A stretch of 64,000 nt of DNA, from the NCBI RefSeq assembly GCF_046119375.1, contig NW_027362761.1:322028001-322092000 (forward strand), in the 5' to 3' direction. The position numbers were made by a program, and so were the translations under genes. Every line of letters starts with the position of its first letter. Position 1 is the stretch's first letter. The DNA is from Phyllobates terribilis (Eukaryota). Positions 26,090 through 63,390 of this stretch are shown here, one piece after another. Under the pieces are notes generated by a model, which saw only the letters and a list, made by a program, of their open reading frames with translations, was not told where the DNA came from and did not search any database.

Positions 26090-28065
26090 TTAAGAGTGTA
26101 TCGAGACAACCCCAACTGGCAACATCCAGTAAATTTCTAGTAAGGATAACAGAGGAATAGCAAAGCTGAGTTCTCAGAAATGATTATCCAGAATTGTCAT
26201 ATTAATGGGAATGAAAGTATTTACTAAAACAGACATGACAGAGGTGGTGACAGATTCTTTGTAATGCACTTTTAAATGAGCAAAAATCAGGCATGTCAGA
26301 GCACTAATGACCAAGGATACAGACTAATAGCTTTATGTAAATAGGTGAAGTGACTGATTAGCTGGAGACCAAACCATGAATTTAGAAGGGTTATTTAAAC
26401 TATAAAGTATAAGGTCTATAATAATCCCATGAAGTCACGTACAGCGGTCATATCAACAATCACCAGATACAACTTTATGCTCGTGTAAATGGGCATTTAG
26501 ACAAAGGAGAATGTGTCTGAACTGCTGCTCGGCATGACATTTCCACATTGGCTTTATCATCACAATATGATAAAACATTACTTCTACTAATAATGATACA
26601 TATTGGATAGAGTAATAGAGCTTTAAATTTAATAAGGTCACTAATTACAGTAAAAAAAAAATTAAGGGGATTATCCATCTGATCAAAATTATTCTAGAAA
26701 GCTTTCATTGTTCTACAAGAATAAAATAAACCGTACTGAACTACTGCTGCCCAGCCATCTCTACCCCCACTAGTATTACCGACACATGACCACTGCAGCC
26801 AATCAATAGGAATACTACTAGCATCACCACAAGGAAATTGTGATGCCTGTCTGCATGTAAACAAAAATAATCAGTGCTGCAGATATTAGAGACAGAACAG
26901 TATGCAAGTTATTTTACACTTATTATTTTAAGCCAGATAATATGGTACAACAGCTAAAAGCTACAGTATTACACATAGAAATACAGATTGAAAATACTGC
27001 TAAGCCAAAGCAAGCAGCAGGTCCAAAGCATGGAAGAAGTGCAAATCTTTCCACTATACTTTCTCTGCGTATGTTTCATTGCTGGTTTTGACTTACAAAT
27101 AGTGATGCAAAATATTGATAAAACTGCTACTGTGAGAAAGTGGCCTCGGTCTACTGACACGCAACCATTCACATAATAGATAAACCGCCAAAACAAAACG
27201 GCTATGCTTCTACTATGCGTGCCCTGCAGGTTACGCAGAGCCCATCTCACCTTCTCAAATATGCAGAGGTCTGCCTTTCTTTCAGGATTTCTTTCAGAGC
27301 CAAGGAAAAATAAGGCAAAGCAATTTCCTGATTGGAAATAGGAAATTAGCTTTGGAACAAATTCAGGAGCTGCGCTGCACATAGCTCAACATAAAATTAG
27401 AAACAGAAGTTTAATTGAAAGATCGTGAATATTTTGAGAGTCTGATAGGTTGCACTTGGTATGAGGAAAGAATGTGAATTCCTCCGGGACTAAGAGAATT
27501 ATAGAGCTTAGCCACACTAAATCCAGCAGGGTTAAATCTATCAGATGGCTGCACTAACTTGGCTTGTCAGATAACTAAAGAAACAAAAAAGCCCAATACG
27601 ACAATTGTTTCCTCATTAATTTCTTTTTAGAACAATAGTAATATGATAATATAAGTATGGAAATTACCCAATAATAGCACCAATTGCATATAATAAGCCA
27701 TGAGCATATCAACATCACATGTGCACCAGTGATCAAGTCCAAGAGTTTAGGGAGCAATCTGAAGATCAGAAGTGTAAGCATATAAAGGATTGCTGAGATT
27801 AGAAAACCCCAGTTGCTTCCTATGTACTGTATCTGGTACTGCTGCTCAGCCCCATTCACATACAAGCAGTTGCGGTTTCCTAATGTTACATAAACCCTTT
27901 TAATTGAGTTAAAGTAGCCAATACTAAATTAATGCACAATCCTAGACATTAACGTTTGGGTCAGAAAAAAACTCATTAAAAAAAGCAACACTGATGACAT
28001 GTTCTCAAATTCTGTTAAGAAGGATCCGATATTAGATTTCTTAATATCAACTGTATACATTTTTA

Positions 28066-28972
28066 GGCTATGTGCCCACGTTGCGGAAATGCTGCATATT
28101 TTTTACGCTTCTCCCTGGCAGGAAAAACGCATGCGGTTTTTACATGCGTTTTTCCCGCCAGGTAGAAGCGTTTGTCAAGCGTTTTTGCATGTATTTCCGC
28201 ATGCGGGTTATCAAGCGCTTTTCCGAGCGATTTTAGCATCACTTGGAAAAGTGCTTGACAACTTGTTCACACTATATAAATCCATGCAAGCCGCATGGAT
28301 TTATAGTAGTGTGACCAAGTTACTTAAAAAAAAAGAATAAGAATGGTAAAAATTAATAAAAATAAAGTTTATACTCACCTTCCGATGTCTTCCCGGTGTT
28401 TTGTCTGCTCCATTCGGTGTCTTGCACTGCTTGCGATGGTGTGAAGGACCTGCGGTGACGTCATTGAGCCATGTGATGGGTCACATGACTCGGTGACGTC
28501 ATGGCAGGTCCTTCACATCAACGCGAACATTGCAAGACACTGGACGGAGCAGACAAAACACCGGGAAGACATCGGAAGGTGAGTGTAAACTTTATTTTTT
28601 ATTATAAATTATTTTTTTTACAGTTTCTATGGTACCCAGGTCTGGATGAGAGTCTCCCCTCCTCCAGACTTGGGTACCATCCGCACATAGAAACGCATAA
28701 TATCCGTGTGTACAAATGTACTGACACGGATATTATGCGTTTCAATGCAAGTCAACGGCAGCGATTACGCTGCGTGTCCGCAAAATTAATGGACATGCTG
28801 CGGATTTTTGAGCGCAGCATAAACGCTGCGGAAAAATCCGCAACATGGGCATTGACATTGCGGCTTGTCATTGGGGACCATGGGGGGCGGATTACCAAGC
28901 GTTTCCCAAGCGTTTATGCTGCGGAAATTAAGCAGCATAAACGTTTGTAAAACGCTACGTGGGCACTCAGCC
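28066..28972. mobile_element. PIF/Harbinger-like MITE (about 900 bp) with an internal hairpin core
   Basis: TTA TSD at 28063-65 and 28973-75. TIR GGCTATGTGCCCACG / CGTGGGCACTCAGCC. TGACGTCA at 28456 and 28494. Confidence 0.88.
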
Positions 28973-29753
28973 TTAAATAGATCTCTAAACCTGATGAAGC
29001 TGGTGAATTTACTTAAAAATCCATGGCAGAATGGTTGTGTAATCCTAATATTAAAATTAGCATTTTATGTTTCGGCCTGATGAGCTCTTGATATCAAGTG
29101 TATTCTATCTCCACCAAGCAAACCTGACTGACAGCTGCATCTTGTACTGAGCAGTGCGACATTTCATCAACAGCAGGAGGATGAAGGGACGCTGAGCGGC
29201 TGTCACTCAGGCCAGGTGGGTGCAGACTGAGCTACACTTTCATGAAAAATTATACAGTAAATCTGACATTGATATTTCAACTAATTCATAAGAGGATGTG
29301 AATCTGGTGAGTGACTACTTTTACTGGTGGGGAAGAAAATAAAGAAGTCTTTAGACCATTGCTCCTACATGTCAGTCCTGGAGTCACCCTTCCCCAAAGG
29401 TCACATTGTCAGGATTTCCTTACTACTACACAGGTGATGTAATAATGGTCAGTGAATCAGAAATTGCCATGGGTTATCTGCAGGAAGGTCTATTGTAGGA
29501 CATGATCGATGGGTCTCTGTCCGTCATAGCAGAGCTACTGGGTCATAGACTCCGGTGTGCTATGCCAAGTGACTTCTGTCACTACAAGTAGCGGTTTTCC
29601 CCTGTAACTGGGGCTCCTATGGATGTCCCAATTACAGTGGAAAAAATGAGAGATAAATACAAGTAAATTATATTCCTTCATATCTTTTATGATCTCTTGG
29701 GGATATATTGTATTGTGCAAAAGTTTTAGGCAAGTGTGAAAAAAATGCTGTAA

Positions 29754-32607
29754 GGGTATGTGCACACGATGCAGAAATGAAGCAGAAAATTTCTGCATCA
29801 TTTCTGCATCTCCCTGGCAGAAAAAACGCATGCAGATTGTGCATGCGTTTTTCCTGCAGAATACATGCGGATCCACATGCAGATTCACATGCGTTTCCGC
29901 ATGCAGATTGACAAGCGCTTTCCAGGCGATTTTAGCATCACCTGGAAAGTGCTTGACAACTAGGTCACACTGTATAAATCCATGCAAACGGCATGGATTT
30001 ATATAGTGTGACCCGAGAGAGTGTATATACTTACCTCCGATGGCCCGCGCTGTCCTGCATTACAAAGTTCCCGGCTGCCGGCAACTTTGAATTGAAAGAC
30101 CTGCCGACGTCAGCGTCACGTGACCCGTCACATGACTCTGACGTCAGCGCAGGTCCTACAACTCACTGCAAGTGCCGGGAACCAAGCGGGAGCGCTGCGC
30201 GGGCCGACAGAAGGTAAGTATACATTTATTTTTTATTTTATTCTTTTTTTACAACTTTTTTAATGGTACCTGGGTGTGGATGAGACTCTCCTCCACACTC
30301 GGGTACCATCCGCATATTAGAACGCGCCAATAGCGCAAGTACAGATGCTGTCTTGCGGAATTGGCGCGTTCTAACGCAAGTCAATGGCGGCGAAATCGCC
30401 GCGTTTCTGCAAAATTAATTGACATGCTGCGGATTTTTGACCGCAGCGTTCACGCTGCGGAAAAATCCGCATCATGGGCACAGCACATGCGGATTTCCAT
30501 TGGGTAACATTGCTGCCCTTCTACCATGCGTTTTTCATGCGTTTCCGCGGCGTTTACGCAACTGCAAAAACGCCGCGGAAACGCATGAAATACGCATCGT
30601 GTGAACTCAGCCTAAGGCTGTGTGCCCACGTAGCATTTTTCAAGCGTATATGCTGCGGAATTTCCGCAGCGTAAACGCTTGAAAAACGCATGTATATCCG
30701 CACCCCATGGTCCCCAATGGGATTCCGCAAGTTCTATGCACATGCTGCGGATTTTTCCGCAGCGTTTAGGCCGCGTTCAAAAATCCGCAGCATGTCATTT
30801 AATTTTGCGTTTCCGCAAGCGGAATTGCCTTTGTCCAATGCATAAAAAACGCAAGGCAATTCTGCATGTGGAAAACGCGTGATAAACGCGCGAAAAATGC
30901 GCGATAAACGCGTGCGGAATTCCGCATGCGTTTTTCCGGGAGAGGACTTGCATTTATGCAGCAGAAATTTTCTGCTTCATAAATGCAACGTGGGCACATA
31001 GCCTAAAAGTAAGAATTCTTTCCAAAATAGAAGTGTAAGGCTATGTGCCCACGTTGCGGACCTGAAGCATATTTTTTACGCTTCTCCCTGGCGGGAAAAT
31101 CGCATGCGGATATTACATGCGGTTTTCCCGCCAGGTAGAAGCGTTTGTGAGGCGTCTTTGCATGCATTTCCGCATGCGGGTTATCAAGCACTTCTCCAAG
31201 CATCACTTGGAAAAGTGCTTGACAACTTGTTCAGAATGGTAAAAAATAAAAAAATAAACTTTATACTCACCTTCTGATGCATTCTCTGCCCCGTCCGGAG
31301 GCTTGAGCGGCTCACGCTGTTGTGTGCAGGACCTGCGGTGACGTCATTGAGTCATGTGGTGGGTCACATGACTCAATGACGTGGCAGGTCCTTCAGACAA
31401 CAGCGCGACGGAGGGAAAACATCAGAAGATAAGTATAAACTTTATTTTATTCTTTTTTTTACAGGTTCTTTGGTACCCAGGTCTGGATGAGAGTCTCCTC
31501 TCATCCAGACTTGGGTACCATCCGCACATTGATTCCGCTGCGTTTCCGCAAAATTAATGAACATGCTGCGGATTTTTGACCGCAGCATATACGCTGCGGA
31601 AAAATCCGCAGCATGGGCATTGACATTGCGGAATGCCATTGGGCACCATGGGGTGCGGATATACATGCATTTTTCAAGCGTTTACGCTGCGGAAATTCCG
31701 CAGCATATACGCTTGAAAAACGCTACGTGGGCACACAGCCTTAGGCTGAGTTCACACGATGCGTATTTCATGCGATTCCGCGGCGTTTTTGCAGTTGCGT
31801 AAACGCCGCGGAAACGCATGAAAAACGCATGGTAGAAGGGCAGCAATGTTACCCAATGGAAATCCGCATGTGCTGTGCCCATGATGCGGATTTTTCCGCA
31901 GCGTGAACGCTGCGGTCAAAAATCCGCAGCATGTCAATTAATTTTGCGGAAACGCGGCGATTTCGCCGCCATTGACTTGCATTAGAACGCGCCAATTCCG
32001 CAAGACAGCATCTGTACTTGCGCTATTGGCGCGTTCTAATATGCGGATGGTACCCGGGTGTGGAGGAGAGGAGAGTCTCCTCCACACCCAGGTACCATTA
32101 AAAAAGCTGTAAAAAAAGAATAAAATAAAAAATAAATGTATTCTTACCATCTGTCGGCCCGCGCAGCGCTCCCGCTTGGTTCCCGGCACTTGCAGTGAGT
32201 TGTAGGACCTGCGCTGACGTCAGAGTCATGTGACGGGTCACGTGACGCTGACGTCGGCAGGTCTTTCAATTCAAAGTTGCCGGCAGCCGGGAACTTTGTA
32301 AAGCAGGACAGCGCGGGCCATCGGAGGTAAGTATATACACTCTCTCGGGTCACACTATATAAATCCATGCTATTTGCATGGATTTATATAGTGTGACCTA
32401 GTTGTCAAGCACTTTCCAGGTGATGCTAAAATCGCCTGGAAAGCGCTTGTCAATCTGCATGCGGAAACGCATGTGAATCTGCATGTGGATCCGCATGTAT
32501 TCTGCAGGAAAAACGCATGCACAATCTGCATGCGTTTTTTCTGCCAGGGAGATGCAGAAATGATGCAGAAATTTTCTGCTTCATTTCTGCATCGTGTGCA
32601 CATACCC
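29754..32607. mobile_element. Palindromic cluster of four Harbinger-like MITEs: X1 29754-30612, X2 30616-31003, X3 31039-31740, X4 31744-32607
   Basis: Each unit is bounded by TAA/TTA. X4 is a near-identical inverted copy of X1. The X1/X2 junction is mirrored by the X3/X4 junction. Confidence 0.9.
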
Positions 32608-38787: not shown

Positions 38788-39847
38788 ATAGACAAGTCCA
38801 AGAATTACTCCCAGGCACATGTTTATTAGTAAATGTGGCACATGTGGGGATTTTTTACTAATTTGATCATCTTCTTTCTACCTTTTCTGACCAGTCATAT
38901 ATTTTGGGTCTTTTTTTAAAAAAAATAATAATTTTTGATACATAATACATGTCAGATGTATCTATTAGAAGAAACCGTACTAAAAAATATTAGTTAAAAA
39001 AAATAGTTCAAAATCATTATTGCTCTTGTTTGCAAAGTTTGTTAGTTTTATGTTTGTCAGATGGAAAAGATAACCCAAGGACTCATGAGGAAACTAGATA
39101 AAGATAATCAGAAATTGTACATAATTAATGTTTCTAAGATTATTCAGAGATTGTACCAAGAGCAAAGTATTTTCTGGCATCATAAAGACATTAAAACAGC
39201 ATTGCAATAGTTATGGTAAAGACCAGTCGTAGTTATAAAGTTAATGATAATGGGCGAAATCAGAGTTGGATAATCAGGTCCTGTGCCAAAAATAGGTTGT
39301 AAACCTATGACTGCTACTGCCCTTGTATAAATAATGGCCAGCCTGGAAAAGCATGAGTCATCCGCTGCTGTTTAAATGAAAAAAAAAAAAAGCTGCTAAA
39401 ACATTTAAAGGGTTTTTTTTAGTGATTTTGTTTAAAATGTGGCAATATCTATATTAAATAACAAAAAAAAAACATGACATTTTGTGGTTTTTACTCTGAT
39501 CACTGAGCTTTATAATAGACTGACACTTCGTTTTCTATAGAGATCACTTTTCAGATGTTGTTCTCTCGTATCAGTCACTGGGCATGTCCAGAAAATTCCT
39601 CCATAGCAGTCAATAAGCATCCCCATTTCACATGGTCCATAAAGTTGCTGAGACTAGGTCAATTTAGTGTTGAGTTTAGAAATGTACTAACATCAAAATA
39701 AAATGGTTACATATTAATTATTAGCCATGTATATATAATTCATATATTAAATGCATAGCTTGCTGTATATTTACTTTCACAGGAATTTTAAAAAGTTTGG
39801 AAATTTAATTATATACATAGCTTTGTTTTATCAATTTAATGCCTTAA

Positions 39848-42800
39848 CCACTTCGCGCCAGAGCCTGTTTTTGCCTTCGTGACCGGGCCAATTTTTTCAA
39901 TTCTGACCACTGTCACTTTATGAAGTAGTTACTCTGGAACGCTTCAACGGATCCCCCTGATCAGGAGAATGTTTTTTCGTGACATATTGTACTTCATGAT
40001 AGTGGTAAAATTTCTTCGATATCATTTGCGTTTATTTGTGAAAAAAAATCGGAAATTTGGCGAAAATTTTGCAATTTTCAAACTTTGAATTTTCATGCCC
40101 TTAAATCAGAGAGATATGTCACACAAAATAATTAATAAATAACATTTCCCACATGTCTACTTTACATCAGCACAATTTTGGAAACAAAATTTTTTTGTTA
40201 GGAAGCTATAAGGGTTAAAAGTTGACCAACGATTTCTCATTTTTCCAACAAAATTTACAAAAACATTTTTTTTAGGGACCACATCTTATTTGAAGTGACT
40301 TTGAGGGGCCTTTATGACAGAAAATACCCAAAAGTGACACCATTCTAAAAACTGCACCGCTCAAGGTGCTCAAAACCACATTCAAGAAGTTTATTAACCC
40401 TTCAGGTGTTTCAAGGGAATTTTTGGAATATGGAAAAATTAAATGAACATTTAACTTTTTTTCACAAAAATGTTACTTTAGACACAATTTTTTTTATTTT
40501 CACATAGGTAACAGGAAAAAATGGAATACACAATTTGTAGTGCAATTTCTCATGAGCGCGCTGATACCCCATATGTGAGGGAAAACCACTGTTTGGGCGC
40601 ACGGCACGGTTCAGAAGGGAAGGAGCGCCATTTGACTTTTTGAATGTAAAATTTGTTTGAATAATTAGCAGACGCCATGTTGCGTTTGGAGAGCTCCTGA
40701 TGTGCCTAAACAGTGGAAACCCCCCACAAGTGACACCATTTTGGAAACTAGACCCCTTAGGGAACTTATCTAGATGTGTGGTGAGCACCTTGCACCCCCA
40801 GGTGCTTCACAGAAGTTTATAATATTGAGCCGTAAAAATAAAATTTTCACATTTTTCCCACAAAAAAATTTTTTCATCCCTTAATTTTGCATTATCATAA
40901 GGGTAACAGGAGAAATTGCACCAAGAAATTTGTGGTGCAATTTCTCCTGAGTACGCCGATACCCCATATGTGGGGGAAAACCACTGCTTTGGTGTACGGC
41001 AGGGTTCGGAAGAGAAAGGAGCGCTATGTTGGCTGGGATAGGTTGCAGACACCATGTCACATTTGAAGAGTCGCTGACATGCCGAAACAGCAGAAACCCC
41101 CACATGTGACCCCATTTTGTAAACTACACCTCTCAAGGAATTCATCTAGGGAAGTAGTGAGTATTTTTTAATTTTTAAATTTATACCATTGGGCAGTGAA
41201 GAAAACAATTATATTTTTGCCACAAAAAAATGTTTTACCCTCAGATTTTACATTTTCACACAGGGCAATGGGTAAAAATGGTGCCGAAATGTGTCACACA
41301 ATTTCTTCTAAAAGTGGCAATACCCCATATGTGGCTGTATCGTACTGCTTAGCCATACGGCGAGATCGGGGAGGAACGGAGCGCTATTTGACAATTGGAG
41401 AACAAATTATTGCAGAATAGGCATTTGGATTTGGGAGCACAAAATTTTCTGAATTTCTTTTGGGGGGCAAGGGCCATTTCGCTTTTCCAGAGCCTTTCTG
41501 CTACCAGTAACTTGGAAGTCCCTTATATTTTTAACAGATGACGGACCTGAGTGGGGACTAGCTTTTTTTGAGGACTGAGTTGAAGCTTTTATTGGGAACA
41601 TTTTACGTAACTTTTATCCGGCGCTCTAGGCTGAGCACTTACATCGGGGTTTCCATCTAAATTTCCAAGTGATGTAATTCAGATGAAACCCCTGCGGGAT
41701 CCATTCACTGTAATGAGGCAGCAGAATTACTCTGGACTCCGTCTGGCCTCTGTTTAGCGGTGTCCTTTTTTTCCAGAAGTGCACAAAACTGTGGCCAACC
41801 GCACTTTTATGCACGCCTAAAAAAACTGACACCGTGGGATCACAGGCCAGATGGCATCCACAGTGGCCTATATCTGCCTCATTACAGGGAATCTTCCGCC
41901 ATGGGTTCCGTCTGAATCACGTATTTCAGAGATTTACACGGAAACTCTGGTGTAAGTGCTCAGCGCAGAGCGCAGGATAAATGTGAGCAGAGCCTTACTG
42001 CGATCTTTGGGAGACATAATAAATCAGTAGCAGGTGAAGAATTGGTTTTATTTATTTTTTACGCGGTTCCTCGTGCGGTAAAAGTGATGAGATTACTTTA
42101 TTCTTCGGGTCAGTACGTTTACAGCGATACTACACTTACTGTATATTTTTTTTATGTTTTGCCGCTTTTACACAATAAAACAATTTTATAGAAAAAATAT
42201 TTTTTGTATCGCTTTATTCTGAGAGCTATAACTTTTTTATTTTTCGGCTGATGGAGCTGTATGGCGGCTTTTTTTTTGCGGAACAAGATGACGTTTTCAG
42301 GGGTACCATTTTTATTTCCATTTTGCTTTTTGATCGCATTTTTTTCCACTTTTTGTTTGGCGATATGATGAAAAAGCATAGTTTTTTGCTCCGTTTTTTA
42401 TTACGGTGTGCACAGAAAGTTAATTAGTGTGACAGTTTTATAGATTGGGTTGTTTCGGACGCGGCGATACCAAATGTGTGTATTTTTTTTGTTTTTGCAT
42501 AAATATACGGATTTATTGGTTTAATATTTTAAATTTATTTATTTTGTGATTTTTTTTTTTGAACAGTTTGAAAAAAATTTTTTGACTTTTTTTTTTACAT
42601 TTTTACTTAGTCCCTGTATGGGACATTAATTTTCATTTTTCTTATCACTGTTCTCATGCAATGCAATAGACATGTATTGCATTGCATGAGAGCTTTGCTG
42701 ACTGTTTCACAGTCAGTGTCTCCTGCTAGAGTTCAGCTGGAGGCTGAGCCTAGCAGGACACCATATAGGGCAGATCCGGAGGTGGTCATGTGACCTCCGA

Positions 42801-48101: not shown

Positions 48102-48303
48102 TTAAGTGTTTGAAAGAAGTGAAAGAGCATGCAGGTTAGTAAGCTTCATACATTTAAAACGATTCACTTTTTTTTATATATTATTCCACAGATTACCGCT
48201 TTAGCTTATAATAACCAAAAGGGAGAAGAAACCCTGGGTGCATTAAGCAATTTGTGACAGTTTTTGGGCAAAAAAAGGTCAGAAATTTTGCCAAACATGC
48301 AAA

Positions 48304-48809
48304 TGTAAAGGACATATTGATATTCATGCTATAGCAACTCCATTTTGTCTGCTTGTTTCAAAATCATGTTATTATCACTCCTTGCATAACATACTTCTTG
48401 CCTTCTTTTCTCATGCTTTACATGGAACTTTCTCACACTAACTTTTTCTCACAAGAAGATTTTGTCAGACACCCTGCTCCTGTTATCTGACTAGTCTAGG
48501 CCAGGATTGACCTTGCAAAATTTCCATCGTGCATCGAGCTAAAGATGATAATATGGCCATATATGTGTTTCCGTAATAATTGCACTAACGTTGGCTCAAG
48601 CCTGTAGTACTGTAGTATGGCTGTAAGTGATTGGACATTAATAAACTCAAAACAATATAAAATGGTAAGTAGAAATAAACAGGGTTAGAGATTCTTTGAA
48701 TCCTCCCATACAGAGCACTGCCTCCGTTTGGTTTTCTGTGGATTGCAATCAACATAATAATTTGACACTCACTTGGTCAACCGTGAAGGGTTATTGCCCT
48801 CCCTCAACA
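48304..48809 (+). repeat. 5' LTR (506 bp)
   Basis: TGTAAAGG...CCCTCAACA. Matches 54393-54699 + 56266-56292 + 59787-59951. ATTGG at about 48630, TATAAAA at 48656-62, AATAAA at 48674-79. Confidence 0.95.
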
Positions 48810-48812
48810 GCT

Positions 48813-48830
48813 TGGAGCCGTGACTCGGAT
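48813..48830 (+). promoter_or_regulatory. Primer-binding site complementary to tRNA-His
   Basis: TGGAGCCGTGACTCGGAT matches 17 of 18 positions of the complement of the vertebrate tRNA-His 3' end (ATCCGAGTCACGGCACCA). It lies 3 nt after the LTR. Confidence 0.9.
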
Positions 48831-48941: not shown

Positions 48942-49425
48942 GCACGAGTTCTTTACTAGTGATACTGACCGTTTGGCGTGGTTTCCACGTGGTGCGTGGT
49001 TGTTTTCAGTATCTCCGGATGTCTTGGTTGGATATAGTCAAAGGTGAGACTATAAGGGGTGTAGTCCCATTAGGGGTCTGATATTGATAACTTTCAAAGC
49101 AGTATCACCTCGGATTGACAAGTGCATATTATGTGAATCTTCCTTAACTTCTGACAAAGATCCTTAGGAGACTGAACACTGTTAGGTTCAGTCACGGCAG
49201 GTGATCGAAGATTGGGTAGGACACGCACACAGATATACACATATATCTATTGTCCGGAGAGCTGCGGACGAGAGTTCTCCTCCTTTCATCTGGGCGTTCG
49301 AGACTCCCCCCAACTGGAGGGGGTGAAATAAAGTCAGTGGAACAGCTGGGAGGTCCTGCCGAACTCGTGCTGTGCACAAAATTAAGGATCTTTGTTGGTT
49401 GAGAGGTGGCAGTAGTGATTAATCA

Positions 49426-49740
49426 ATGTTTCCGTGGAGCAGAAAGAAATTGTCTCCCCTACACGAGGGAGAGGATGTGATGAATATCATGATCGGTCGA
49501 GAAGGGAAAAGATCATTTAAGAATGCACCAAAAGTGTTTAAGGTGTTAAATTTTCCTGTGGGAGGGAGACTTCAGCCTGTGTTGTGGGACGAAGGTATCC
49601 GGCAGAAAAGGGGTAGATTAGTTGACTGTGGATTGCTGGAAGACGCTGAAAAGTTTAGGAAAGTTGCACATGAGATTTGTGATGAAGGGTATGTTGAAAT
49701 AGAAGGAAGGAAATATGTAGCGAAAACTAAAAAAGAGTAA
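49426..49740 (+). CDS. 104-aa ORF upstream of gag; accessory or matrix-like protein
   Basis: Intact ATG-to-stop ORF inside the provirus. Basic, with an FPxGGRL motif. No function recognised. Confidence 0.4.
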   Translation: MFPWSRKKLSPLHEGEDVMNIMIGREGKRSFKNAPKVFKVLNFPVGGRLQPVLWDEGIRQKRGRLVDCGLLEDAEKFRKVAHEICDEGYVEIEGRKYVAKTKKE

Positions 49741-49793
49741 TGTCATTGTGTGGGTCGTACCCGGGTGGGTAGATTACAGTACGAGATAGATAA

Positions 49794-50415
49794 ATGGCTT
49801 GTTGGAAAGTGCATACATGTGAAAAAAAGGCTGCGCTGAGTTTGTTGAAAGAAGGGAAAAAGTATGTGCAGAAACTTAAACAGTTAACTAAAATACGCGA
49901 GCTACCAGATAAGGGCCGGTTAATTATGAAGAAAAAGGGCAAGTTAGAGGATAAAGGATTGTTACAAATAGCTTTGGCTTGGTATAGAAGAGCAGAGAAT
50001 TTGTCAAAGAAGGGTGGATGGAGGAAGAAAATACAGCCAATAAGGGAAAGATGCCATGTTATGTGTATTACAAAGATACTGCTCTCCAGCCACCGCCCGA
50101 TAATGGCAGATGGGGGGGGGGGGAATGGACCTGTACTAATTGCAGTCAGCAGAATATTGTGTTGCATGTCACGTGCCCCGTCCAGGAGGCGCACCCCTTG
50201 CTACTACCCAAGCCACTCCTAGTGCCCCATCCTCATCTGTTATACCTATGTCCGCCCAATGTTCCAACCCTTCCTGCAGCCATGTTGCTACACCCATTGC
50301 ATCACCTCCAGCCTCTGACCACGTGTCTCTTTGGTGGCGGCTATGTTGGCGCACCCTTCCTGTAGTGTGTTTCCTTCTGGTGGAAGCCAACTTGGCACAC
50401 CCGGAATGTGTATGA
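49794..50415 (+). pseudogene. gag: gag N-terminal remnant: basic matrix-like region, RanBP2-type zinc finger and PSAP late-domain motif; capsid and nucleocapsid deleted
   Basis: Frameshifted reading ...LPDKGRL...IALAWYRRAE...GEWTCTNCSQQN//CVACHVPRP...TPSAP (PSAP at 50218-29). No capsid MHR or CCHC knuckle was seen before pol resumes. Confidence 0.55.
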
Positions 50416-50499
50416 TGAAGATCATCATGTCAGTATGTTATACAAACGGTGGGACCAAAATATGATCCCCTGGATGTACCCAGGTCACAACACCTGCTT

Positions 50500-53187
50500 A
50501 CAAAAACAATTCAAAACACCATAGCATACTCATCACAGCTTCATGCGGTCCCAACCCTAGCCCTGCCATTTATTTCCATCTGTATCTTTGCCTAATCAGT
50601 TTGCAAAGAACATGTCTAGCTGTCTGCTGCCGTGGCAGCTGGACAACTCTGAGGTAGTACTCTTACAATACGTGGATGATCTTCTTTTGTGCCCCCACGG
50701 AGCAAGTGTCCATCAGGGCCAGTGTTAGCCTCCTCAAGCATCTAGCAAAACTGAATTGTCGAGTCTCAGCCTCGAAACTTCAGTTTTGCCTCGGTCAAGT
50801 GGTTTTCTTAGGCCCACTGCCCTACTCAGGGTGCCAGACATCTCACAGAAGAAAGAAAGACGGTCATCTACCAGCTACCATTCCCAAAAGATCCCATAGA
50901 GCTGCAACGGTTCCTTGGACTATGTACATATTGCAGACAATGGATCCCAGACGCCTCACGTCTGATGCAGCCCCTATATGATGCATTAAAAGAAGACACT
51001 CTGGCTGATGTAAACAACAAGGACCACCAAGAACTGCTGCAACAAGCCTTTTGAGCAACTAAAGTCAAGGATAATGACAGCCCCTGCCCTTGGAAACCCA
51101 GACTAAGCTCAACCTTTCCATTTGTACGTCTCTGAGACGGGAGGGCATGCAGCCGGAGTACTCACGCAGAGACACTGTACAAAGCAGCGCCCAGTCGGTT
51201 ATTACTCAGCGCATCTGGACCCAGTAGCCAGGGCCTCCCCCCCCTGTCACGCCACACAGCAGTTACTTGAGAAGACGACGGACATCATCCTTGGACATGA
51301 GACTCACATTTACGCTCCACACGATATAGCGGCTGTTCTGGCTTTACAGCAACCTAAACATCTGTCCACACAGAGACATCTGCGGCTGCAGTGTTCGTTG
51401 ATTTTGCCAGAAAATGTGAAATTACACCGGTGCACCACCATCAACCCAGCCACCCTGCTACCAGCACCTGAAGGAGAGGGGAAAGAGTCTCCACCACATG
51501 ATTGTCTGGAACAAATTACTGCGGAGTCAACTCCACTTGTTTTAGTGGGGGAAATACCCTTGGATGACCCAGAACTTACGTTATATACGGATGGATCAAG
51601 ATATGCTGACAGCTCTGGCAGGTTTCATACTGGATATGCTGTCACAACTGAAGATACATTGGTAGAGGCTGCAGCCTTACCCCCCCAGTATGTCAGCACA
51701 GGAAGCCAAGCTCAAAGCTCTGATTGCTGCTTGTCAACAGGCCGAAGGAAAACATGTGAATATATTTACTGACTCGAGATAAGCCTTCGGGATTGCACAT
51801 GATTTTAAAGGAAATCTGGGCATGCAGAGGCTTTGTCACAACTGCAGGTTCTCCTGTGAAAAATGCTGAAAGCGTCAGACAATTGATGGAAGCGGTGCAA
51901 CTACCAAGACAGTTGGCTGTCGTAAAGGTAAAAGCTCATACCCGGCCAGATGCCCCTGAAGCAAGAGGTAATGCACTTGCTGATCTCCAGGCTAAGCGAG
52001 CAGCTCTTCTTCCGACATCCATGTCCATGGCTGTTACGCGGCAACAGGCCAAACAACTAAATTCCGTGCCAACCCAGGATCAATCTGCAGAAGAGCATCA
52101 ACTGGTCCCTCCAATCACAAAGCTACGCTTCACACAGCAAAAAGTCTCTAAAGAAGAACGCCAGTCATGGAAGGAGGCAGGTGCTAAATTGATAGATGGC
52201 CTATGGAAAAAGGAACAACTGTATTGTTTACCTCGACTCCTATATCCAGCCGTTGGAGCCTGGGCCCATACACCGGTACATCGAGGGAAGAATCAAGCTT
52301 TGCTACTGGTACAGAAACTCTATTGGGCTCCAGGAATTTCCACCGTGTTGAGTGCACTGAACAAAGGTTGCACAATATGCCAAACCTGCAACCCAGGTAG
52401 ATTACAGAATGTACCGACAAAACACCTTGCCAAACCAGAGTATCCGTTCCAACGATTGCAAGTTGATCACATCACTCTCCCTAAAGCAGGACGATATGAA
52501 TACTGCTTAGTGGTAGTGGATATGTTTTCCAGTTGGCCAGAAGCATTCGCCGTTCCAAACATGACTGCTAAGACTACCGCCAAGAAGCTGGTCTCTGAAG
52601 TTGTTTGCCGGTATGGAGTCCCAGAAGTCGTCGAAAGTGATCAAGGACCAGCCTTTTCCTCATGCGTATATCAAGAAATACTTACCATGATCGGATCAAC
52701 AGTAGCGTTACATACTCCTTACCATCCACAGTCAAGTGGCAAGGTGGAGAGATTGAATGGCATACTGAAAAGGCAATTAACCAAAATGATGCAGGAGACT
52801 ACGGCCCAGTGGCCTGAGCTCCTTCCCATTGCACTATATCACATACGCACCACCCCCAAAGGGAAACACAAACTGTCACCCTATGAGATACTATTTGGGT
52901 CACAACCAGCTATAGCTCGATTTACCCCACAACAATTATCAGAAGAAACAGATCATGTTGTGCAATATGTGACTCACCTTGCCAAAGCCTTAACTAACAC
53001 CCATGCGTTAGTATCATCTTCTATTCCAGATCCAGCTGATGCAGAAGGTTGTCATACCCTCAAACCTGGAGATTATGTGTATGTAAAGAAGCATTTTCGG
53101 AAACACGGACTAGAACCACTGTATGACGGACCATACCAAGTGTTCCTGACAACCCCAACAGCAGTAAAACATGAATTTTCTGAATAA
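50500..53187 (+). pseudogene. pol: pol remnant: partial RT, RNase H and integrase, with several frameshifts, stops and deletions; protease absent
   Basis: LLQYVDDLLL (YVDD at 50669-80), KLQFCLGQVVFLG, LQRFLGLCTYCRQWIP, LYTDGSRY, VKVKAH. Integrase HHCC (H-PVH...CTIC), LQVDH, ESDQGPAF, SSGKVERLNG, and GPY. Confidence 0.95.
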
Positions 53188-53189
53188 AA

Positions 53190-54237
53190 GTCTAGGGATC
53201 CAACATGTGGCAATAAGGATGTTGGATATTGTAGCCCCTGGGACAAATGTCTTCATGGTGTATGTTATCAAATAACACCGTTTTTATCGATTTGGTACAT
53301 AAATTAGTATTACAGCACTCTGCTTTATGGGACCTGCCATCAGCCACATATTGGGTCTGTGGGAATAATGCATATAAATGGCTGCTCCCAGTCGGAGTAG
53401 GGGGGACTTGTACGCTGGCCCAGCTAACTCCAGCCACTTATCTTATTCCGCATAGTAAAGTAGATATGAGAGCCATCCCTCTCCATACCCTCTATAAACG
53501 TGCTAAGGACAACCACCCCACACCCATCAGGAAGACCTCATTTAGTACAAATGAGTATACCCAATAAGATAGCCAGTACGGTCTTCCTCTACCCCTATGG
53601 TTACACAAATGTGGGACAAATTAGTGGAAGTCACTGATTACTTAGATGACCAGATTTGGAGTGTATTGGAATTAATACTACTGTTGCAGTGCAGAATCAA
53701 CTTATTATAGTGGCCAATCAACATACTTTAGTGCTGGACTATTTGACAGCAGCTCAAGGAGGGATGTGTCAGGTTATAGGCCCAGCCTGTTGTCACTATA
53801 TGGACCCCGACTCTACCATACGGTTAAAGACTAAAATGGAAGACATTAGGAAAATCAGGGAAAAGTATAACAAACATAATAAATTGACCAAAGACAGTTG
53901 GTGGTCTGATACATTTTCCTTTTTAAATCCTGCTAATTGGTTTAAAGGGATTGGTGGATGGATTGCTGGAATATTACAAGGAGTGTTGCATATTGTTGCT
54001 TGCATCTTGTTAATATATGTCTTACTAAAACTAGTCTTTTATTGTATCCCATTTTGCATGAGGAAAACGTGCCAGTCATCAGAGAGGAGCAAGGAGGACA
54101 CTGTTAATCGACATCCAGTGCTACTATACACGGACCTCCCAGATGTAACCAGCATTGAGGACCTGGATGACAAAGAAATGATGATCTTTACCCGCACGCC
54201 CCGATCAACCTCACGTCTGAAGATCAGAGCTTTATGA
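53190..54237 (+). pseudogene. env: env remnant: SU C-terminus plus a gamma-type TM
   Basis: YWVCGNNAYKWLL..GGTCTL (SU). ISD-like QNQLIIVANQHTLVLDYLTAAQGGMC, CX6CC motif CQVIGPACC, and a hydrophobic membrane span. The 5' part is deleted and frameshifted. Confidence 0.9.
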
Positions 54238-54392: not shown

Positions 54393-54699
54393 TGTAAAGG
54401 ACATATTGATATTCATGCTATAGCAACTCCATTTTGTCTGCTTGTTTCAAAATCATGTTATCACTCCTTGCATAACATACTTCTTTCCTTCTTTTCTCAT
54501 GCTTTACATGGAACTTTCTCACACTAACTTTTTCTCACAAGAAGATTTTGTCAGACACCCTGCTCCTGTTATCTGACTAGTCTAGGCCAGGATTGACCTT
54601 GTAAATTTCCATCGTGCTTCGAACTAACGATGATAATATGACCATATATGCGTTTCCGTAATAATTGCACTAACATTGGCTCAAACCTGTAGTACTGTA
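54393..54699 (+). repeat. 3' LTR, part 1 (continues at 56266-56292 and 59787-59951)
   Basis: Colinear with 48304-48614 and breaks at a TA. Confidence 0.95.
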
Positions 54700-56263
54700 C
54701 AGTCATGGCCAAAAGTTTTGAGAATGACACCAAAATTATATTTTCATATGATCTGCTGGCCTCTGGTTTTTATTAGTGTTTGTCTGATGTTTATATCACA
54801 TACAGAAATATAATTGCAATCATATTATGAGTACCAATAGGTTATATTTACAGTTAGAATGAGTTAATGCAGCAAGTCAATATTTGCAGTGTTGCCCCTT
54901 CTTCTTCAAGACCTTTGTAATTCTCCCTGGCATGCTCTCAATCAACTTTTGGACCAAATCCTGACTGATAGCAGTCCATTCTTGCATAATCAATGCTTGC
55001 ATTTTGCCAGAATTTGTTGGTTTTTGTTTGTCCACCCGTCTCTTGATGATTGACCACAAGTTCTCAATGGGATTAAGATCTGGCGAGTTTCCAGGCCATG
55101 GACCCAAAATCTCTATGTTTTGCTCCATGAGCCATTTAGTTATCACCTTTGCTTTATGGCAAGGTGCTCCATCCTGGAAAAGGCATTGTTGGGCGCCAAA
55201 CTGCTCTTGGACGGTTGGGAGAAGTTGCTCATGGAGGACATTCTGGTACCATTCTTTATTCATGGCTGTGTTTTTAGGCAAGACTGTGAGTGAGCCGATT
55301 CCCTTGGCTGAGAAGCAACCCCACACATGAATGGTTTCAGGATGCTTTACAGTTGGCATGAGACAAGACTGGTGGTAGCGCTCACCTCTTCTTCTCCGAA
55401 TAAGCTGTTTCCAGATGTCCCAAACAATCGAAAAGGGGATTCATCAGAGAAAATGACTTTGCCCCAGTCCTCAGCAGTCCACTCCCTGTACGTTTTGCAG
55501 AATATCAGTTGGTCCCTGATGTTTTTTCTGGAGAGAAGTGGCTTCTTTGCTGCCCTCCTTGAAACCAGCCCTTGCTCAAAGAGTCTCCGCCTCACAGTGC
55601 GTGCAGAAGCACTCACACCAGCCTGCTGCCATTCCTGAGCAAGCTCGGCACTGCTGGTAGTCCGATCCCGCAGCTGAAACAGTTTTAAGATACGGTCCTG
55701 GCGCTTGCTGGTCTTTCTTGGGTGCCCTGGAGCTTTTTTGACAACAATGGAAGCTCTCTCCTTGAAGTTCTTGATGATGCGATAGATTGTTGACTGAGGT
55801 GCAATCTTTGTAGCTGAGATACTCTTCCCTGTTAGGCCATTTTTGTGCAGTGCAGAGATGGCTGCACGTGTTTCTTTAGCGATAACCATGGTTAACTGAA
55901 GAGAAACAATGATACCAAGAACCAGCCTCCTTTTAAAGTGTCCAGTGATGTCATTCTTACTTAATCATGACTGATTGATCGCCAGCCCTGTCCTCATCAA
56001 CACCCACACCTGTGTTAATGGATCAATCACTAAAACGATGTTAGCTGCTCCTTTTAAGGCAGGACTGCAATGATGTTGAAATGTGTTTTGGGGGTTAAAG
56101 TTCATTTTCTGGGCAAATATTGACTTTGCAAGTACAGTAATTGCTGTTAAGCTGATCACTCTTTGACATTCAGGAGTATATGCAAATTGCCATTACAAAA
56201 AATGAAGCAGTAAACTGGAAAAATTACTATTTGTCTCATTCTCAATACTTTTGGCCATGACTG
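54700..56263 (-). mobile_element. Tc1/mariner transposon, DD35E (Traveler-like), 1564 bp
   Basis: TA TSD (54698-99 and 56264-65). TIR of about 29 bp, CAGTCATGGCCAAAAGT(T/A)TTGAGAATGA. Transposase on the minus strand. Confidence 0.93.
54877..55889 (-). pseudogene. DD35E transposase with one frameshift near 55420 and one codon lost beside the second Asp
   Basis: N-terminal HTH region, VIFSDES, FQ-DGAPCH, LGPWPGNSPDLNPIE. There are 35 residues between the second D and the E. Confidence 0.9.
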
Positions 56264-57932
56264 TAGTATGGCGGTAAGTGATTGGCCATTAACCCCTTTA
56301 CCCCCGAGGGTGGTTTGCACGTTAATGACCAGGCCAATTTTTACAATTCTGACCACTGTCACTTTATGAGGTAATTACTCTGGAACGCTTCAATGGATCC
56401 CCCTGATTCTGAGATTGTTTTCTCGTGACATATTGTACTTCACGATAGTGGTAAAATTTCTTCGATATCACTTGCGTTTATTTGTGAAAAAAATGGAAAT
56501 TTGGCGAAAATTTTGCAATTTTCAAAATTTGAATTTTTATGCCCTTAAATCAGAGAGATATGTCACACAAAAAAGTTAATAAATAACATTTCCCACATGT
56601 TTACTTTACATCAGCACAATTTTGGAACCCAAATTTTTTTTTTTGCTAGGAAGCTATAAGGGTTAAAAGTTGATCAGCGATTTCTAATTTTTCCAACAAA
56701 ATTTACAAAACCATTTTTTTTTAGTGACCACATCACATTTGAAGTAACTTTGAGGGGTCTTTATGACTGAAAATACCCAAAAGTGACACCATTCTAAAAA
56801 CTGCACCCCTCAAGGTGCTCAAAACCACATTCAAGAACTTTATTAACCCTTCAGGTGCTTTACAGGAATTTTTGGAATGTGGAAGAAAAAAATGAACATT
56901 TAACTTTTTTCACAAAAATGTTACTTTAGACCCAATTTTTTTTATTTTCGCAGGGGTAACAGGAAAAAATGGACCCTAAAATTTGTTGTGCGATTTCCCC
57001 TGGGCACGCAGATACACCATATGTGGGGAAAAACCACTGTTTGGGCGCACAGCAGGGCTCGGAAGGGAAGGAGCACCATTTGACTTTTTGATTGTAAAAT
57101 TTGCTTGAATAATTAGCAGACGCCATGTTGTGTTTGGAGAGCCCCTGATACGCCTAAACATTGGAAACCCCCCACAAGTGACCCCATTTTGGAAACTAGA
57201 CCCCCCTGGGAACTTATCTAGATGCGTGGTGAGCATTTTGAACCCCCAGGTGCTTCACAAATTAATCCGTAAAAATGAAAAAGTATTTTTTTTTCACTTT
57301 TACGAATCAATTTGTGGTGCACCTGGGGGTTCCAAGTGCTCACTATGCATCTAGATATGAGCCTTGGGGGAAAATCCGCTCAAATTGTTAGCGGACACCA
57401 TGTTGCGTTTGGAGAGCCCCTGTGTGCCTAAACATTGGAGCTCCCCCACAAGTTACCCTATTTTGGAAACTAGACCCCCCAAGGCACCTATCTAGATGCA
57501 TAGTGAGCACTTGGAATCCCCAGGTGCTTCACAAATTGATTCGTAAAAAAGGAAAAAGTGGGAAAAAAAATAATTTTTCAATTTTACGAATCAATTTGTG
57601 AAGCACCTGGGGGTTCCAAGTGCTCACTATGCAACTAGATAGGTGCCTTGGGGGGTCTAGTTTCCAAAATGGGGTCACTTGTGGGGGAGCTCCAATGTTT
57701 AGGCACACAGGGGCTCTCCAAACTCGACATGGTTCCAATTTGTTAGCGGACACCATGTCGAGTTTGGAGAGCCCCTGTGTGCCTAAACATTGGAGCTCCC
57801 CCACAAGTGACCCCATTTTGGAAACTAGACCCCTCAATGATTTTATCAAGGGGTATAGTGAACATTTTAAACCCAGAGGTACGACACAGAATTTGATAAC
57901 ATTAGGTCATCATATTGAATAAGTTGTCATTA

Positions 57933-58229
57933 GTCTTGAGCGCAAGTACTCGCTACTTGAGTTTGCATCGGGTACTTGGGTATGCACCATGTACTGCGTG
58001 TGCTCGAGTGACATGCTCGAGTCCCTGCCCCGCATGTTTCACGGTTATTAGACACCCAAAAAAAAACATGCGGGGATCGCTCGTGCTTGGCAGGCAATAC
58101 CCGCAAAGTTTTTTTGGCCGCGAAGCATATGGGGCGGAGACTCGAGCATGTCACTCAAATACCCACGATCCTCAAAGCATACCAGAGCACCCGATGCAAA
58201 CTCAAGTAGCGAGAGCTTGCGCTCAACAC
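57933..58229. mobile_element. MITE nested in the piggyBac-like element
   Basis: TA-GTCTTGAGCGCAAGTACTCGCTAC...GTAGCGAGAGCTTGCGCTCAACAC-TA. Confidence 0.8.
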
Positions 58230-58273
58230 TAGTCGCCATATTGCCATCTTTTTTTCTTACTTTTGAAAAAAAT

Positions 58274-58345
58274 CCCAACCCCATGACAACCCTAACCCCA
58301 ACCCCAGCCCAACACTAACACTAGCCCTAGGCCTAACCCTAACCC
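58274..58345 (+). repeat. Degenerate (CCCTAA)n-like hexamer tract
   Basis: CCCAAC CCCATG ACAAC CCTAAC CCCAAC CCCAGC ... GCCCTAG GCCTAA CCCTAA CCC. Confidence 0.6.
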
Positions 58346-59041
58346 GAGAGTTTATTTTTTACGCCGTTCCTCGTGCGGTATAAGTGATTAGACGACTTTA
58401 TTCTTCGGGTCGGTGCGATTACAACGATACCAGAATCATATGGGGTTTTTATAATTGACAGCTGTCACACACTAAAAGACGCATTTTTTTTTGTAAAATC
58501 TAGTTTTTGCATCGCCATATTTTGAGAGCTATAATTTTTCCAGATTTTGGCAGACAGTCATGTGATGGCTTGCTTTTTGCGGGATGAGTTGATGTTTTTA
58601 TTGGTGCCATTTTCAGGCACGTGACATTTTTTGATTGCTTTTTATTCCGATTTTTGGGAGGCAGAATAAACAAAAACCAACAATTCAGGAACTGTTTTTT
58701 TTTATTTTTTTATTCTGTTCCACGTGTGGTAAAATTGATAAGGGAGCTTTATTCTTCGGGTCAGTACGTTTACAGCGGTACCACATTTATATAGTTTTTC
58801 TATGTTTTGGCGCTTTTACACAATAAAAGCTATTTTATAGAAAAAATTATTTTTCAGCATCGTTTTATTCTGAGAGCTATAACTTTATTTTTCGGCTGAT
58901 GGAGCTGTATGGCGGCTTGTTTTTTGCGGGACGAGATGACGTTTTCAGCAGTAGTATTTTTATTTATATTCGTCTTTTTGATCGCGTGTTATTCCATTTT
59001 TTGTTTGGCGGTATGGTGATAAAGCATTGTTTTTTGCTTCG

Positions 59042-59073
<32 letters not shown>

Positions 59074-59786
59074 GTGTTCACTGAAGGGGTTAACTAGTGG
59101 GACAGTTTTATAGGTCAGGTCGTTTCGGACGCGGCGATACCAAATATGTGTACTTTTATTGTTTTTTTTTCATAATATTTATTGATGGGTACATTATATT
59201 TTTATTTTTGGTGGATTATTTTTTTTATTTTTAATAGTTTTACAATTTTATTTTTATTTTCACTTTCTGACAGTTTTTTAACTTGTTTACTTTGTCCCAC
59301 TCTGGGACTTTAACTTTTTTTTCTCTGATCGCCTGCATGGCACAGGAATGAAGCACCATCCCTGTGCAGTGCAGGCTGTCAGCGCTGGACAGGGAGAAGA
59401 TAATTTGGAAATGCACTGCGCATGTCCAAAAAATCTTCCTGCTGTCTGGTGACCCGGATGTTGTCATGACGACATCGGGTCGTCATGGCAACATCCTGGA
59501 AGCCGCGGCAGACAGCGCTGGAGGCCGGAAGAGGAGGTGATTATACCGATCACCTCCCCTTAGCCACCGCAATCATTGCAGGGGTTAATGTGCTGGGAGC
59601 GGTGCGGGACCGCTCCCTGCACATAGCACCGGGTGTCAGCTGTGACAATCAGCTGACACCCGGCGGCGATCGCGCCCGCACAGCCTGTGTGCGGGCGCGA
59701 TCGCAATGACGTACTAATATGGCACAGGCTTTTAACGCCCAGTGCACAAACGCATATTAGTACGTCATAGGTTGTAAAGGGGTTAA

Positions 59787-59951
59787 TAAACTCAAAACTA
59801 TATAAAATGCTAAGTAGAAATAAACGGGGTTAGAGATTCTTTGAATCCTCCCATACAGAGAACTGCCTCCGTTTGGTTTTCTGTGGATTGCAATCAACAT
59901 AATTTGACACTCACTTGGTCAACCGTGAAGGGTTATTGCCCTCTCTCAACA
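59787..59951 (+). repeat. 3' LTR, final part
   Basis: Colinear with 48642-48809 and ends CTCTCAACA. Confidence 0.95.
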
Positions 59952-60593
59952 CAAGTATTTACAACTTTTTCATCCTGATCATCACTTTTCTAAAAGCTGT
60001 GTAGGGGGCATGCTACCAACAGCTTAGCAGACATTATATAAACAGGAACGTAATTTTTTACGGCAAAAACTGGCATAAAATTTAGAACAAATTCTATGTC
60101 TGCTCATTGCAAATGTAAAATGTCTTTTTTTTTTTTTTACAGGAAAAAGATCTGACTAATATATTAGAAGGCCTTTGCTTTACTCCAGTGTACTCTGAAC
60201 TAAGGTTGACGTTTCAATTCCCTTCACTGTGAAGTGTTTCTTCTGCCAAGGGCCATATAAAATCGCTCTCATGCTGTGCATGTAGGCTATAAACATGAGT
60301 CCACTGAACCCAGGGCAATCCATTTTATTTGCATTATGCCTTTTGAAAACTTTTGAATGGTGTCTAATAAAAAACAGACAATGGGAAGGGGAGAAACTTA
60401 CAATTAATGTGTTCATAACGAGATAAACAGTTACATCACAGGAAATCTCTGCTGTAGACATGAAAGATTATGGCATTACTGCCCACTCAGTGAAAGGCTT
60501 ACAGTGTAATGATAATAGGGAAGAGGAAAAATCAGCAGCACAGATCAGGGAGGGATAAAACCAGAGTCACAGCTTAATAACCGTTTTGATGGC

Positions 60594-61994: not shown

Positions 61995-63390
61995 AGGGAA
62001 CCTGTCATGTAAAATAATGCTATTAACATGCAGGTTAATAGTGTTCTGACACTGTGCGGCCACCGCGCTGAGAACCCCGCTGCCAGGATGAAATTTATTT
62101 TATTTTACCCCGGCAGCCTTGCTCTTTCAGTAATAAGGGTGACACCGGCACGATTTGGCTAAGTGCTCACGATGCAGAAATGCTGCATATTTTTTCCGCA
62201 TCTCCCTGGCAGGAAAAACGCATGCGGATTTTACATGCGTTTTTCCTGCCAGGTAGAAGCGTTTGTCAAGCATTTTTGCATGCATTTTTTAATGAGGGTT
62301 ATCAAGCGCTTTCCCAAGCGATCTGAGAATCACTTGGAAAAGTGCTTGACAACTTGGTCACACTATATAAATCCATGCAAACGGCATGGATTTATATAGT
62401 GTGACCAAGTAATAGTTAAAAAAAAGAATAAAAATGGTAAAAAATAAAAAAATAAACATTATACTCACCTTCTGATGGCCCGCGGTCTTCTCTCCGATGC
62501 GTCCGGTTGCTCGTACGACTCACGGTGATGTAAAAGGACCTTCCAGGACGTCATTTAGTCATGTGACAGGTACGTGACCGCCGACGTCAGCGGTCGCGTG
62601 ACCTGTCACATGACTAAGTGACGTCATAGAAGGTCCTTTTACGCCATCGCGAGCCACCGGGGAGCCAGGACGCACCACAGAGGAGACCGGGGGACATCGG
62701 AAGGTGAGTATAATGTATATTTTTTATTTATTTTAAATTCTTTTTTTTAACAGGTACTATGGTACCCGGGTCTGGAGGAGAGTCTCCTATTCTCCAGACC
62801 CGGGTACAATCCGCACATTGAATCGCTTAATATCCGTATGTGCACATGTACTCATGCGGATATTAAGCTATTCAATGCAAGTCAATGGCAGCAATTACGC
62901 TGCATGTCCACAAAATCAATGGATATGCTGTGGATTTTTCCGCAATGATAATCCGCAGCGGAAATTTCCGCAGCATGTGCACAGCACATGCAGATTATCA
63001 TTGGGGACCATGGGGCACATATTACCAAGCGTTTTTAAAGCATTTTCGCTGTGGAAATTCCGCGGCAAAAACGCTTGAAAAGCGCATAGTGGGAATGCAG
63101 CCTTTCAGTCACAGCCCAATGAATAGAGATAGGCAAGCTCATTATTAGGACCACTGTCAGAAGTGTCAGGTGTGATTACAGCGGCCACTCACTATGCACT
63201 GAGCAATGATTTAAACTGTGAAGGCGCCACCCCTATGAATGAAAAGAGTGAAGTTGCCAGAGGGAGTAAAGTTTATTTCCTCCCAGCAGCGAGGCTCTCA
63301 GTGCGGTCACACAGTGTCAGAAAACTATTAACCTGCAGATTAACCCCATATCTGTAGGATAATAGTGTTCTTTTACATGACAAGTTCCCT
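61995..63390. mobile_element. T2/Kolobok-like MITE interrupted by a Harbinger-like MITE
   Basis: TTAA-AGGGAACCTGTCATGTAAAA...TTTTACATGACAAGTTCCCT-TTAA. Confidence 0.85.
62157..63102. mobile_element. Harbinger-like MITE (family of the 28066 element), nested
   Basis: GGCTAAGTGCTCACG...GTGGGAATGCAGCC flanked by TTT/TTT. Internal hairpin core at about 62460-62710. Confidence 0.8.

Follow-up and report, generated by a model that had tools for sequence, protein, structure and literature searches.

The window analysed here, a stretch of 64,000 nt from the genome of the frog Phyllobates terribilis, contains a defective provirus whose gag remnant encodes, in two different reading frames, the two halves of a zinc finger of the RanBP2 type. 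This locus raises the question of how a finger of host type came to be in a retroviral Gag, what broke it in this copy, and what it may do in the Gags that keep it complete.

The provirus and its split finger

The provirus shows the features of class I epsilon-like anuran ERVs: an LTR-gag-pol-env layout, an integrase with the MLVIN_C tail, a gamma-type TM and a Pol whose nearest relatives are those of frog ERVs. Its parts are the following:

48300-48303 and 59952-59955: 4-nt target-site duplication with one mismatch, flanking the provirus
48304..48809, + strand: 5' LTR (TG...CA), from LTR comparison
48813..48830, + strand: primer-binding site, from the letters
49423..49740, + strand: matrix-like stretch that belongs to the provirus backbone itself, with 38-44% identity to the RMERV and Ascaphus Gags at their N-termini
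49698..50445, + strand: gag block taken from a second ERV family (family A), with the matrix end, the finger, the PSAP region and a short macrodomain remnant
50409..50445, + strand: remnant (about 37 nt) of the stretch that leads, in family A copies, into the C-terminal half of the macrodomain
50592..53187, + strand: broken pol, with the remainder of the reverse transcriptase (RT), RNase H and the integrase with MLVIN_C; the nearest named relatives are frog ERV Pols (integrase, 47-54% identity for the top seven of 33 matches)
53235..54237, + strand: broken and shortened env (TLV_coat), gamma-type
54393..54699, + strand: 3' LTR, part one; its alignment with the 5' LTR covers 306 nt and shows 9 mismatches and 2 gaps
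59783..59951, + strand: 3' LTR, part two, which later insertions have moved out of place (95.3% over 172 nt)

The primer-binding site presumably corresponds to tRNA-His, and the window holds no tRNA genes. The provirus lacks capsid, nucleocapsid, protease and the start of RT. Since its LTRs have diverged by 3-5%, and frog ERVs with an LTR divergence of 2-3% have been dated at 2.0-2.5 million years (PMC12690878), the provirus is probably a few million years old. A Tc1-like transposon, recognised from its translations, splits the 3' LTR at window positions 54700-56300; dispersed repeat families with internal palindromes and duplicates spaced about 16.4 kb apart are present at 28000-32500, 39800-42400, 56300-59050 and 62150-63100.

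Within the gag block, the finger region is composed as follows:

50126..50155, + strand: front half of finger 1 (W-x-C-x2-C-x3-N), from the letters
50147..50157, + strand: frame-shifting deletion junction, located on a direct repeat of 9 nt; two-finger copies are longer by about 163 nt
50158..50184, + strand: back half of finger 2 (C-x2-C..PRP), from sequence comparison
50218..50229, + strand: PSAP motif of the late-domain type, from the letters

The front half starts at the Trp codon and is followed, after 2 nt, by the back half, which shares its frame with PSAP, the front half being in the other frame. A sequence-only reading of the window had placed the Trp at 50126 and the back half at 50158, and had held that the finger is hidden from the track of open reading frames by spanning two of them; all the letters were found in place, and neither open frame gives a Pfam match to PF00641. 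The one-frame signature W-x-C-x(2,4)-C-x3-N-x6-C-x2-C is absent from the window copy, with its halves in different frames. A motif arisen by chance was rejected, since none of 200 simulated windows contains the strict split pattern, which the window has once (a loose version of it appears in 24 of the 200). The window finger is a real but broken remnant of a host-type zinc finger.

The match of the window to family A, whose copies may carry two fingers, is confined to positions 49698-50445; in addition, the window integrase and one from family A share about 72% identity over 222 nt. None of 50 two-finger loci matched the window LTR, leader or RT, while most of the loci that have the window type of finger or a single finger do match one of these. 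From this distribution it follows that the gag block was taken from family A into another ERV backbone; the provirus joins parts of two ERV families, and its lineage spread in a defective state. A finger native to the provirus's own gag was also considered and was rejected, since the motif lies within the block from family A. No two-finger copy on the window backbone, which would be the direct parent, was present among the 50 two-finger loci.

Hybrid origin of the window finger

The P. terribilis genome (10.6 Gb) yielded, at a first look, about 1200 candidates for the finger region, 40 of them being scored per search; spacing was counted at 39 distinct places from 56 loci, with three loci giving no match. 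Thirty places have the spacing of the window, eight carry one in-frame finger that is 16 nt longer, and one has two fingers. When this lone two-finger copy was used as the query, 30 two-finger loci were recovered, in most of which the Trp codons are separated by 147 nt. Compared with them, the window copy has a gap of 163 nt in 21 of 30 cases and of 152-166 nt in all 30, and a direct repeat of 9-10 nt spans the gap in 21 of the two-finger copies. At four diagnostic letters, 29 of the 30 window-type places are of the finger 1 type. Given the gap of about 163 nt and the finger 1 letters, we conclude from this comparison that the window finger is a hybrid, with the front of finger 1 and the back of finger 2, about 163 nt having been lost between 9-nt direct repeats. 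Template switching between the short repeats was probably the route of this collapse.

The sequence-only reading had assumed a 16-nt deletion, a size that the two-finger copies contradict. A loss of 16 nt from a single-finger ancestor would fit the in-frame single-finger copies, which are exactly 16 nt longer on the same backbone (8 of 39 places, with at least 34 exact pattern matches) and have a short repeat 16 nt apart; however, these copies are of the finger 2 type at the diagnostic letters in 8/8 places, whereas the window type follows finger 1, and the longer 9-nt repeat stands 163 nt apart in two-finger copies. Moreover, an exact-pattern search of the genome for an intermediate made of the finger 1 front, a spacer of 8-36 nt and the back half gave zero matches. 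An origin from a single finger is in consequence largely refuted, and we consider it very improbable. Exact 23-mers were counted at no fewer than 148 places for finger 1, at least 42 for the window type and at least 34 for the in-frame hybrid.

Within the hybrid, the Asn codon of the window is found in 1 of the 30 window-type places, which is the window itself; it would be either a private change or the mark of a slightly shifted crossover. At least three different finger collapses were observed on the window-type backbone, namely the window type, the in-frame hybrid and a finger-2-only form in loci L103 and L112. In this lineage the tandem fingers collapsed several times, probably by the same switching between short repeats, and the finger was without function in an element that spread as a defective chimera.

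Complete fingers and macrodomains in the Gags of frog ERVs

In less-deleted copies, the full fingers keep six residues between N and C together with the four cysteines, in agreement with the RanBP2 signature in PMC12383448, and single natural fingers score 27.4-32.8 bits against a PF00641 cut-off of 27. The sequence-only reading had named the six codons and the Pfam zf-RanBP model as checks, and both bear it out: a RanBP2-type C4 finger of host type, which it had proposed for the matrix-capsid interval of Gag near late motifs, is seen there in the complete copies. Two full signatures are present in 19 of 50 family A loci, one in 28 and none in 3. With respect to the two-hairpin zinc-ribbon fold of this class, a model of a family B finger has a pLDDT of 84, and its top Foldseek rows are nearly all RanBP2-type, most of them below 1 A and none at E <= 0.001; a model of the finger with zinc and ubiquitin had a low score (0.01), from which no reading was drawn. 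Fifteen finger-bearing Gags were compared in pairs, with a median identity of 0.48 for the finger, 0.33 for the knuckle, 0.25 for the capsid and 0.24 for the matrix; the value for the finger is inflated, as the set was chosen by having the finger pattern, and the fair contrast is that between 0.32, the identity left when the six signature residues are removed, and the 0.25 of the capsid. Identical finger residues are often encoded by different codons, as in 12 of 16 cases between families B and C. The alignments indicate that the finger is conserved above the level of the capsid.

A PF00641 profile search of the P. terribilis genome gave 35 matches, of which the 30 examined were host genes and Gags of families A, B and C; a search with an Ascaphus Gag led to family E, in which 29 of 30 loci keep the full signature, so that finger-bearing Gags occur in four ERV families of this genome. 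Beyond it, phmmer with the family B Gag gave 68 matches, and the survey of amphibian Gags that had been advised for this locus found finger-bearing ones in eight frog genera (Anomaloglossus, Lithobates, Phyllobates, Ranitomeya, Engystomops, Rhinoderma, Bufo and Ascaphus) and in the cane-toad virus RMERV. Of the 68 phmmer matches, the 30 that were looked up include none named as a fish or salamander protein, a scope too narrow to speak for absence. A further profile search of proteins returned three Ascaphus proteins only, and a word-index protein search with the family B Gag returned nothing, although HMMER finds relatives with 43% identity. A search of sequencing runs gave five small shares and no RNA run among its matches.

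A quick capsid tree was built from 33 rows. Of these, 29 form a clade (support 100) with four subgroups, each of which includes finger-bearing Gags, whereas the other four rows have no finger; family A groups with RMERV and Ascaphus (98). The simplest reading would be one early gain of the finger followed by losses; it is based on this tree and is weakened by its long branches. Because full-length Gags without a finger exist (P0011, P0019, P0031 and P0115), the finger is dispensable; several other finger-less rows are N-terminally cut. Two other finger-bearing families (loci L108-L111 and L115, and loci L121-L150) have many near-identical copies with open gag frames, and for this reason they appear to be young; one of them clusters at G000:C3:639.4-642.5 Mb, where a stretch of 3 Mb holds about a dozen copies.

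RanBP2 fingers in a frog Gag have already been reported once, for AnERV9 of Gastrophryne carolinensis, with two fingers (bioRxiv 10.1101/2024.07.05.601823, 2024 preprint). By its description AnERV9 resembles family A, with an epsilon-class Pol, a gamma-type Env, one CCHC knuckle and two RanBP2-type Gag fingers; the main text of the preprint gives the fingers one sentence, for one of ten families, and no position, distribution or function. To this we add the clade-wide spread and the residue pattern of the fingers; the host-type finger, seen before in a single frog virus, becomes a recurring, conserved Gag part across frog ERVs. Our literature search, which for AnERV9 covered main text, found no clade-wide or functional treatment of these fingers, and PMC12690878 mentions neither zinc nor RanBP. 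In UniRef, one Engystomops relative is named as a RanBP2-type domain protein. The RMERV Gag (AWS20966.1, P0014) shares the capsid subgroup of family A and has the same order of parts, i.e. matrix, PPPY, finger pattern, macrodomain, capsid and CCHC, with a single finger that Pfam misses at E 0.001. The class of RMERV is our assumption, in line with the context of PMC12690878.

The macrodomain lies inside Gag, between the finger and the capsid, in family A, family E, RMERV and Ascaphus:

L051:3114-3713, L107:1252-2496 and L118:6241-6711: macrodomain loci of family A
L121-L150: macrodomain Gags of family E
P0014, P0025 and P0074: other macrodomain Gags

The closest solved structures to the RMERV macrodomain are PARP9 (104 bits) and PARP14, the next best reaching 58 bits; the structure rows of an atlas feature search were weak macrodomain matches. 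Fish epsilon-like ERVs have likewise captured cellular modules, with a macro domain or CNPase as additional reading frames (Basta 2009 via PMC4977317), but in the frog Gags the macrodomain is part of Gag itself, alongside the finger. This mention of fish ERVs was all that the literature search on macrodomains in retroviral Gag returned.

Residue pattern and possible partners of the finger

The residues that define the binding modes of RanBP2-type fingers were surveyed in 20 fingers from 19 Gags. Ubiquitin-binding NZF domains are defined by a TF motif (PMC11372445). The NZF fingers of Npl4, TAB2, TRABID and HOIP have the fold predicted for the viral ones, but Thr-Phe/Tyr after the second Cys is found in none of the 20, and Gly follows that Cys in 13. 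We therefore regard as quite unlikely a binding to ubiquitin, or to a ubiquitinated protein, through which the finger would help PPxY/PSAP to recruit ESCRT during budding, even with a PPxY at most 40 aa upstream in 13 of 20 fingers, PSAP or PTAP close by in several, and a Tyr or Phe at the second TF position in two fingers of a separate subgroup. The Gags P0028, P0038 and P0072 form this subgroup, which has Tyr/Phe at that position and a degenerate second cysteine cluster; if any of the fingers bind ubiquitin, theirs would be the best candidates.

Among solved single fingers, the closest is finger 1 of RBM10, with 41.8 bits for the profile (33.9 for the next single finger) and an E of 1e-5 for a single copy; the fingers of RBM10, RBM5 and ZRANB2 and the viral ones have the frame W-x-C-x2-C-x3-N-x6-C-x2-C in common. 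This match, and an Arg at N+4, the position of R82 in ZRANB2, in 7/20, would fit a finger that binds single-stranded RNA with an altered specificity and, next to the single CCHC knuckle, assists in packaging the genome or in handling RNA. Recognition of GG requires an aromatic residue at N+1 and two arginines (PMC5499739, PMC11789483), and the RNA-binding subfamily (ZRANB2, RBM5/10, FET) combines that residue with Arg at N+3/N+4. In contrast, the viral fingers have Pro at N+1 in 17 of 20, an aromatic residue there in one, and no case of an aromatic N+1 together with Arg at N+4; the arginine pair is mostly lost, the net charge is 0 in 5/5 fingers of the own genome, and acidic residues are frequent at N+2 (11/20) and N+5 (13/20). 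RNA binding is accordingly an unlikely role, and the likeness to RBM10 suggests the source of the finger rather than its present function.

In nucleoporin fingers, the Leu after the second Cys contacts Ran. That the viral finger binds Ran in the same way and routes Gag or cores through nuclear pores is hardly credible: the Ran-binding nucleoporin fingers combine this Leu with a hydrophobic residue, and those in our alignments mostly have it, against 0/20 of the viral ones, for all that searches by sequence and by structure place the Nup153 and RanBP2 fingers high and that Ala is present at C3+2 in 6/20. As the TF motif, the RNA-stacking aromatic residue and the nucleoporin Leu are absent or nearly so, the three canonical RanBP2 binding modes appear unsupported in the viral fingers. 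From the proposal of the sequence-only reading, a captured host module for ubiquitin/ESCRT recruitment, RNA sensing or nuclear trafficking, the host-type finger stands and the canonical roles find no support in the residues.

The viral fingers have a pattern of their own, with Gln at N-1 in 17/20 and Trp at N+3 in 10/20, that fits none of the three known modes. We favour, with a probability of roughly 0.55, the reading that the finger is an accessory module for docking a host protein, set in a p12-like matrix-capsid spacer of the frog epsilon-like Gag. Against it, the exposed positions of the finger vary, Trp at N+3 being in only half of the fingers, and the best sequence match is an RNA-binding finger.

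The p12 of MLV is located between matrix and capsid. It is not known to carry a zinc finger or a macrodomain. Its PPPY serves budding, and separate parts of it bind capsid and tether chromatin (PMC6021111); with the frog spacer it has this late motif in common and would also share a second, early-acting part, the analogy being one of position alone. Starting from the probable fold class, the position, the spread over frog ERV lineages and the conservation of the finger, we infer the following course for the docking module. A host finger, with RBM10 as the closest solved match, would have been captured once and early, and later duplicated and lost. The spacer would be excised to give a p12-like peptide. 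Its PPxY would have a role in budding, and the finger, just behind PPxY and at the place of the chromatin-tethering part of p12, may use a non-canonical Q-N-P-x-W face to bind a host protein. In this way it would most likely help the incoming core to reach the nucleus or to stay in it. Alternatively, the spacer may simply be a place in Gag that tolerates insertions. Since the domain has 30 residues and many natural variants, its partner is directly testable, and it offers a handle on the little-studied matrix-capsid spacer of epsilon-like retroviruses.

More tentatively, the frog clade could use this spacer as a cargo bay, in which a finger of new specificity and, in one subgroup, a macrodomain of the PARP9/PARP14 type would together blunt an antiviral defence based on ADP-ribosylation or steer the core to the nucleus. 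If so, the modules would be packed at the copy number of Gag and released on entry, an accessory strategy within Gag, and through the PARP9-like macrodomain a retroviral structural protein would join the known viral means of countering ADP-ribosylation.

Two minor observations concern other sequences. Locus L116 (G000:C4463), a small contig that is possibly contamination, encodes repeated RanBP2 fingers in a Gly/Ser-rich protein, which we take to be plant-like. Four NCBI frog proteins from four genera (P0003, P0009, P0055 and P0116, the last represented by its first residues and its cluster) have a TRIM N-terminus, with a RING and in some a B-box and coiled coil, fused to C-terminal parts of an ERV Gag; these could be real chimeras of TRIM and capsid, or artefacts of the gene models.
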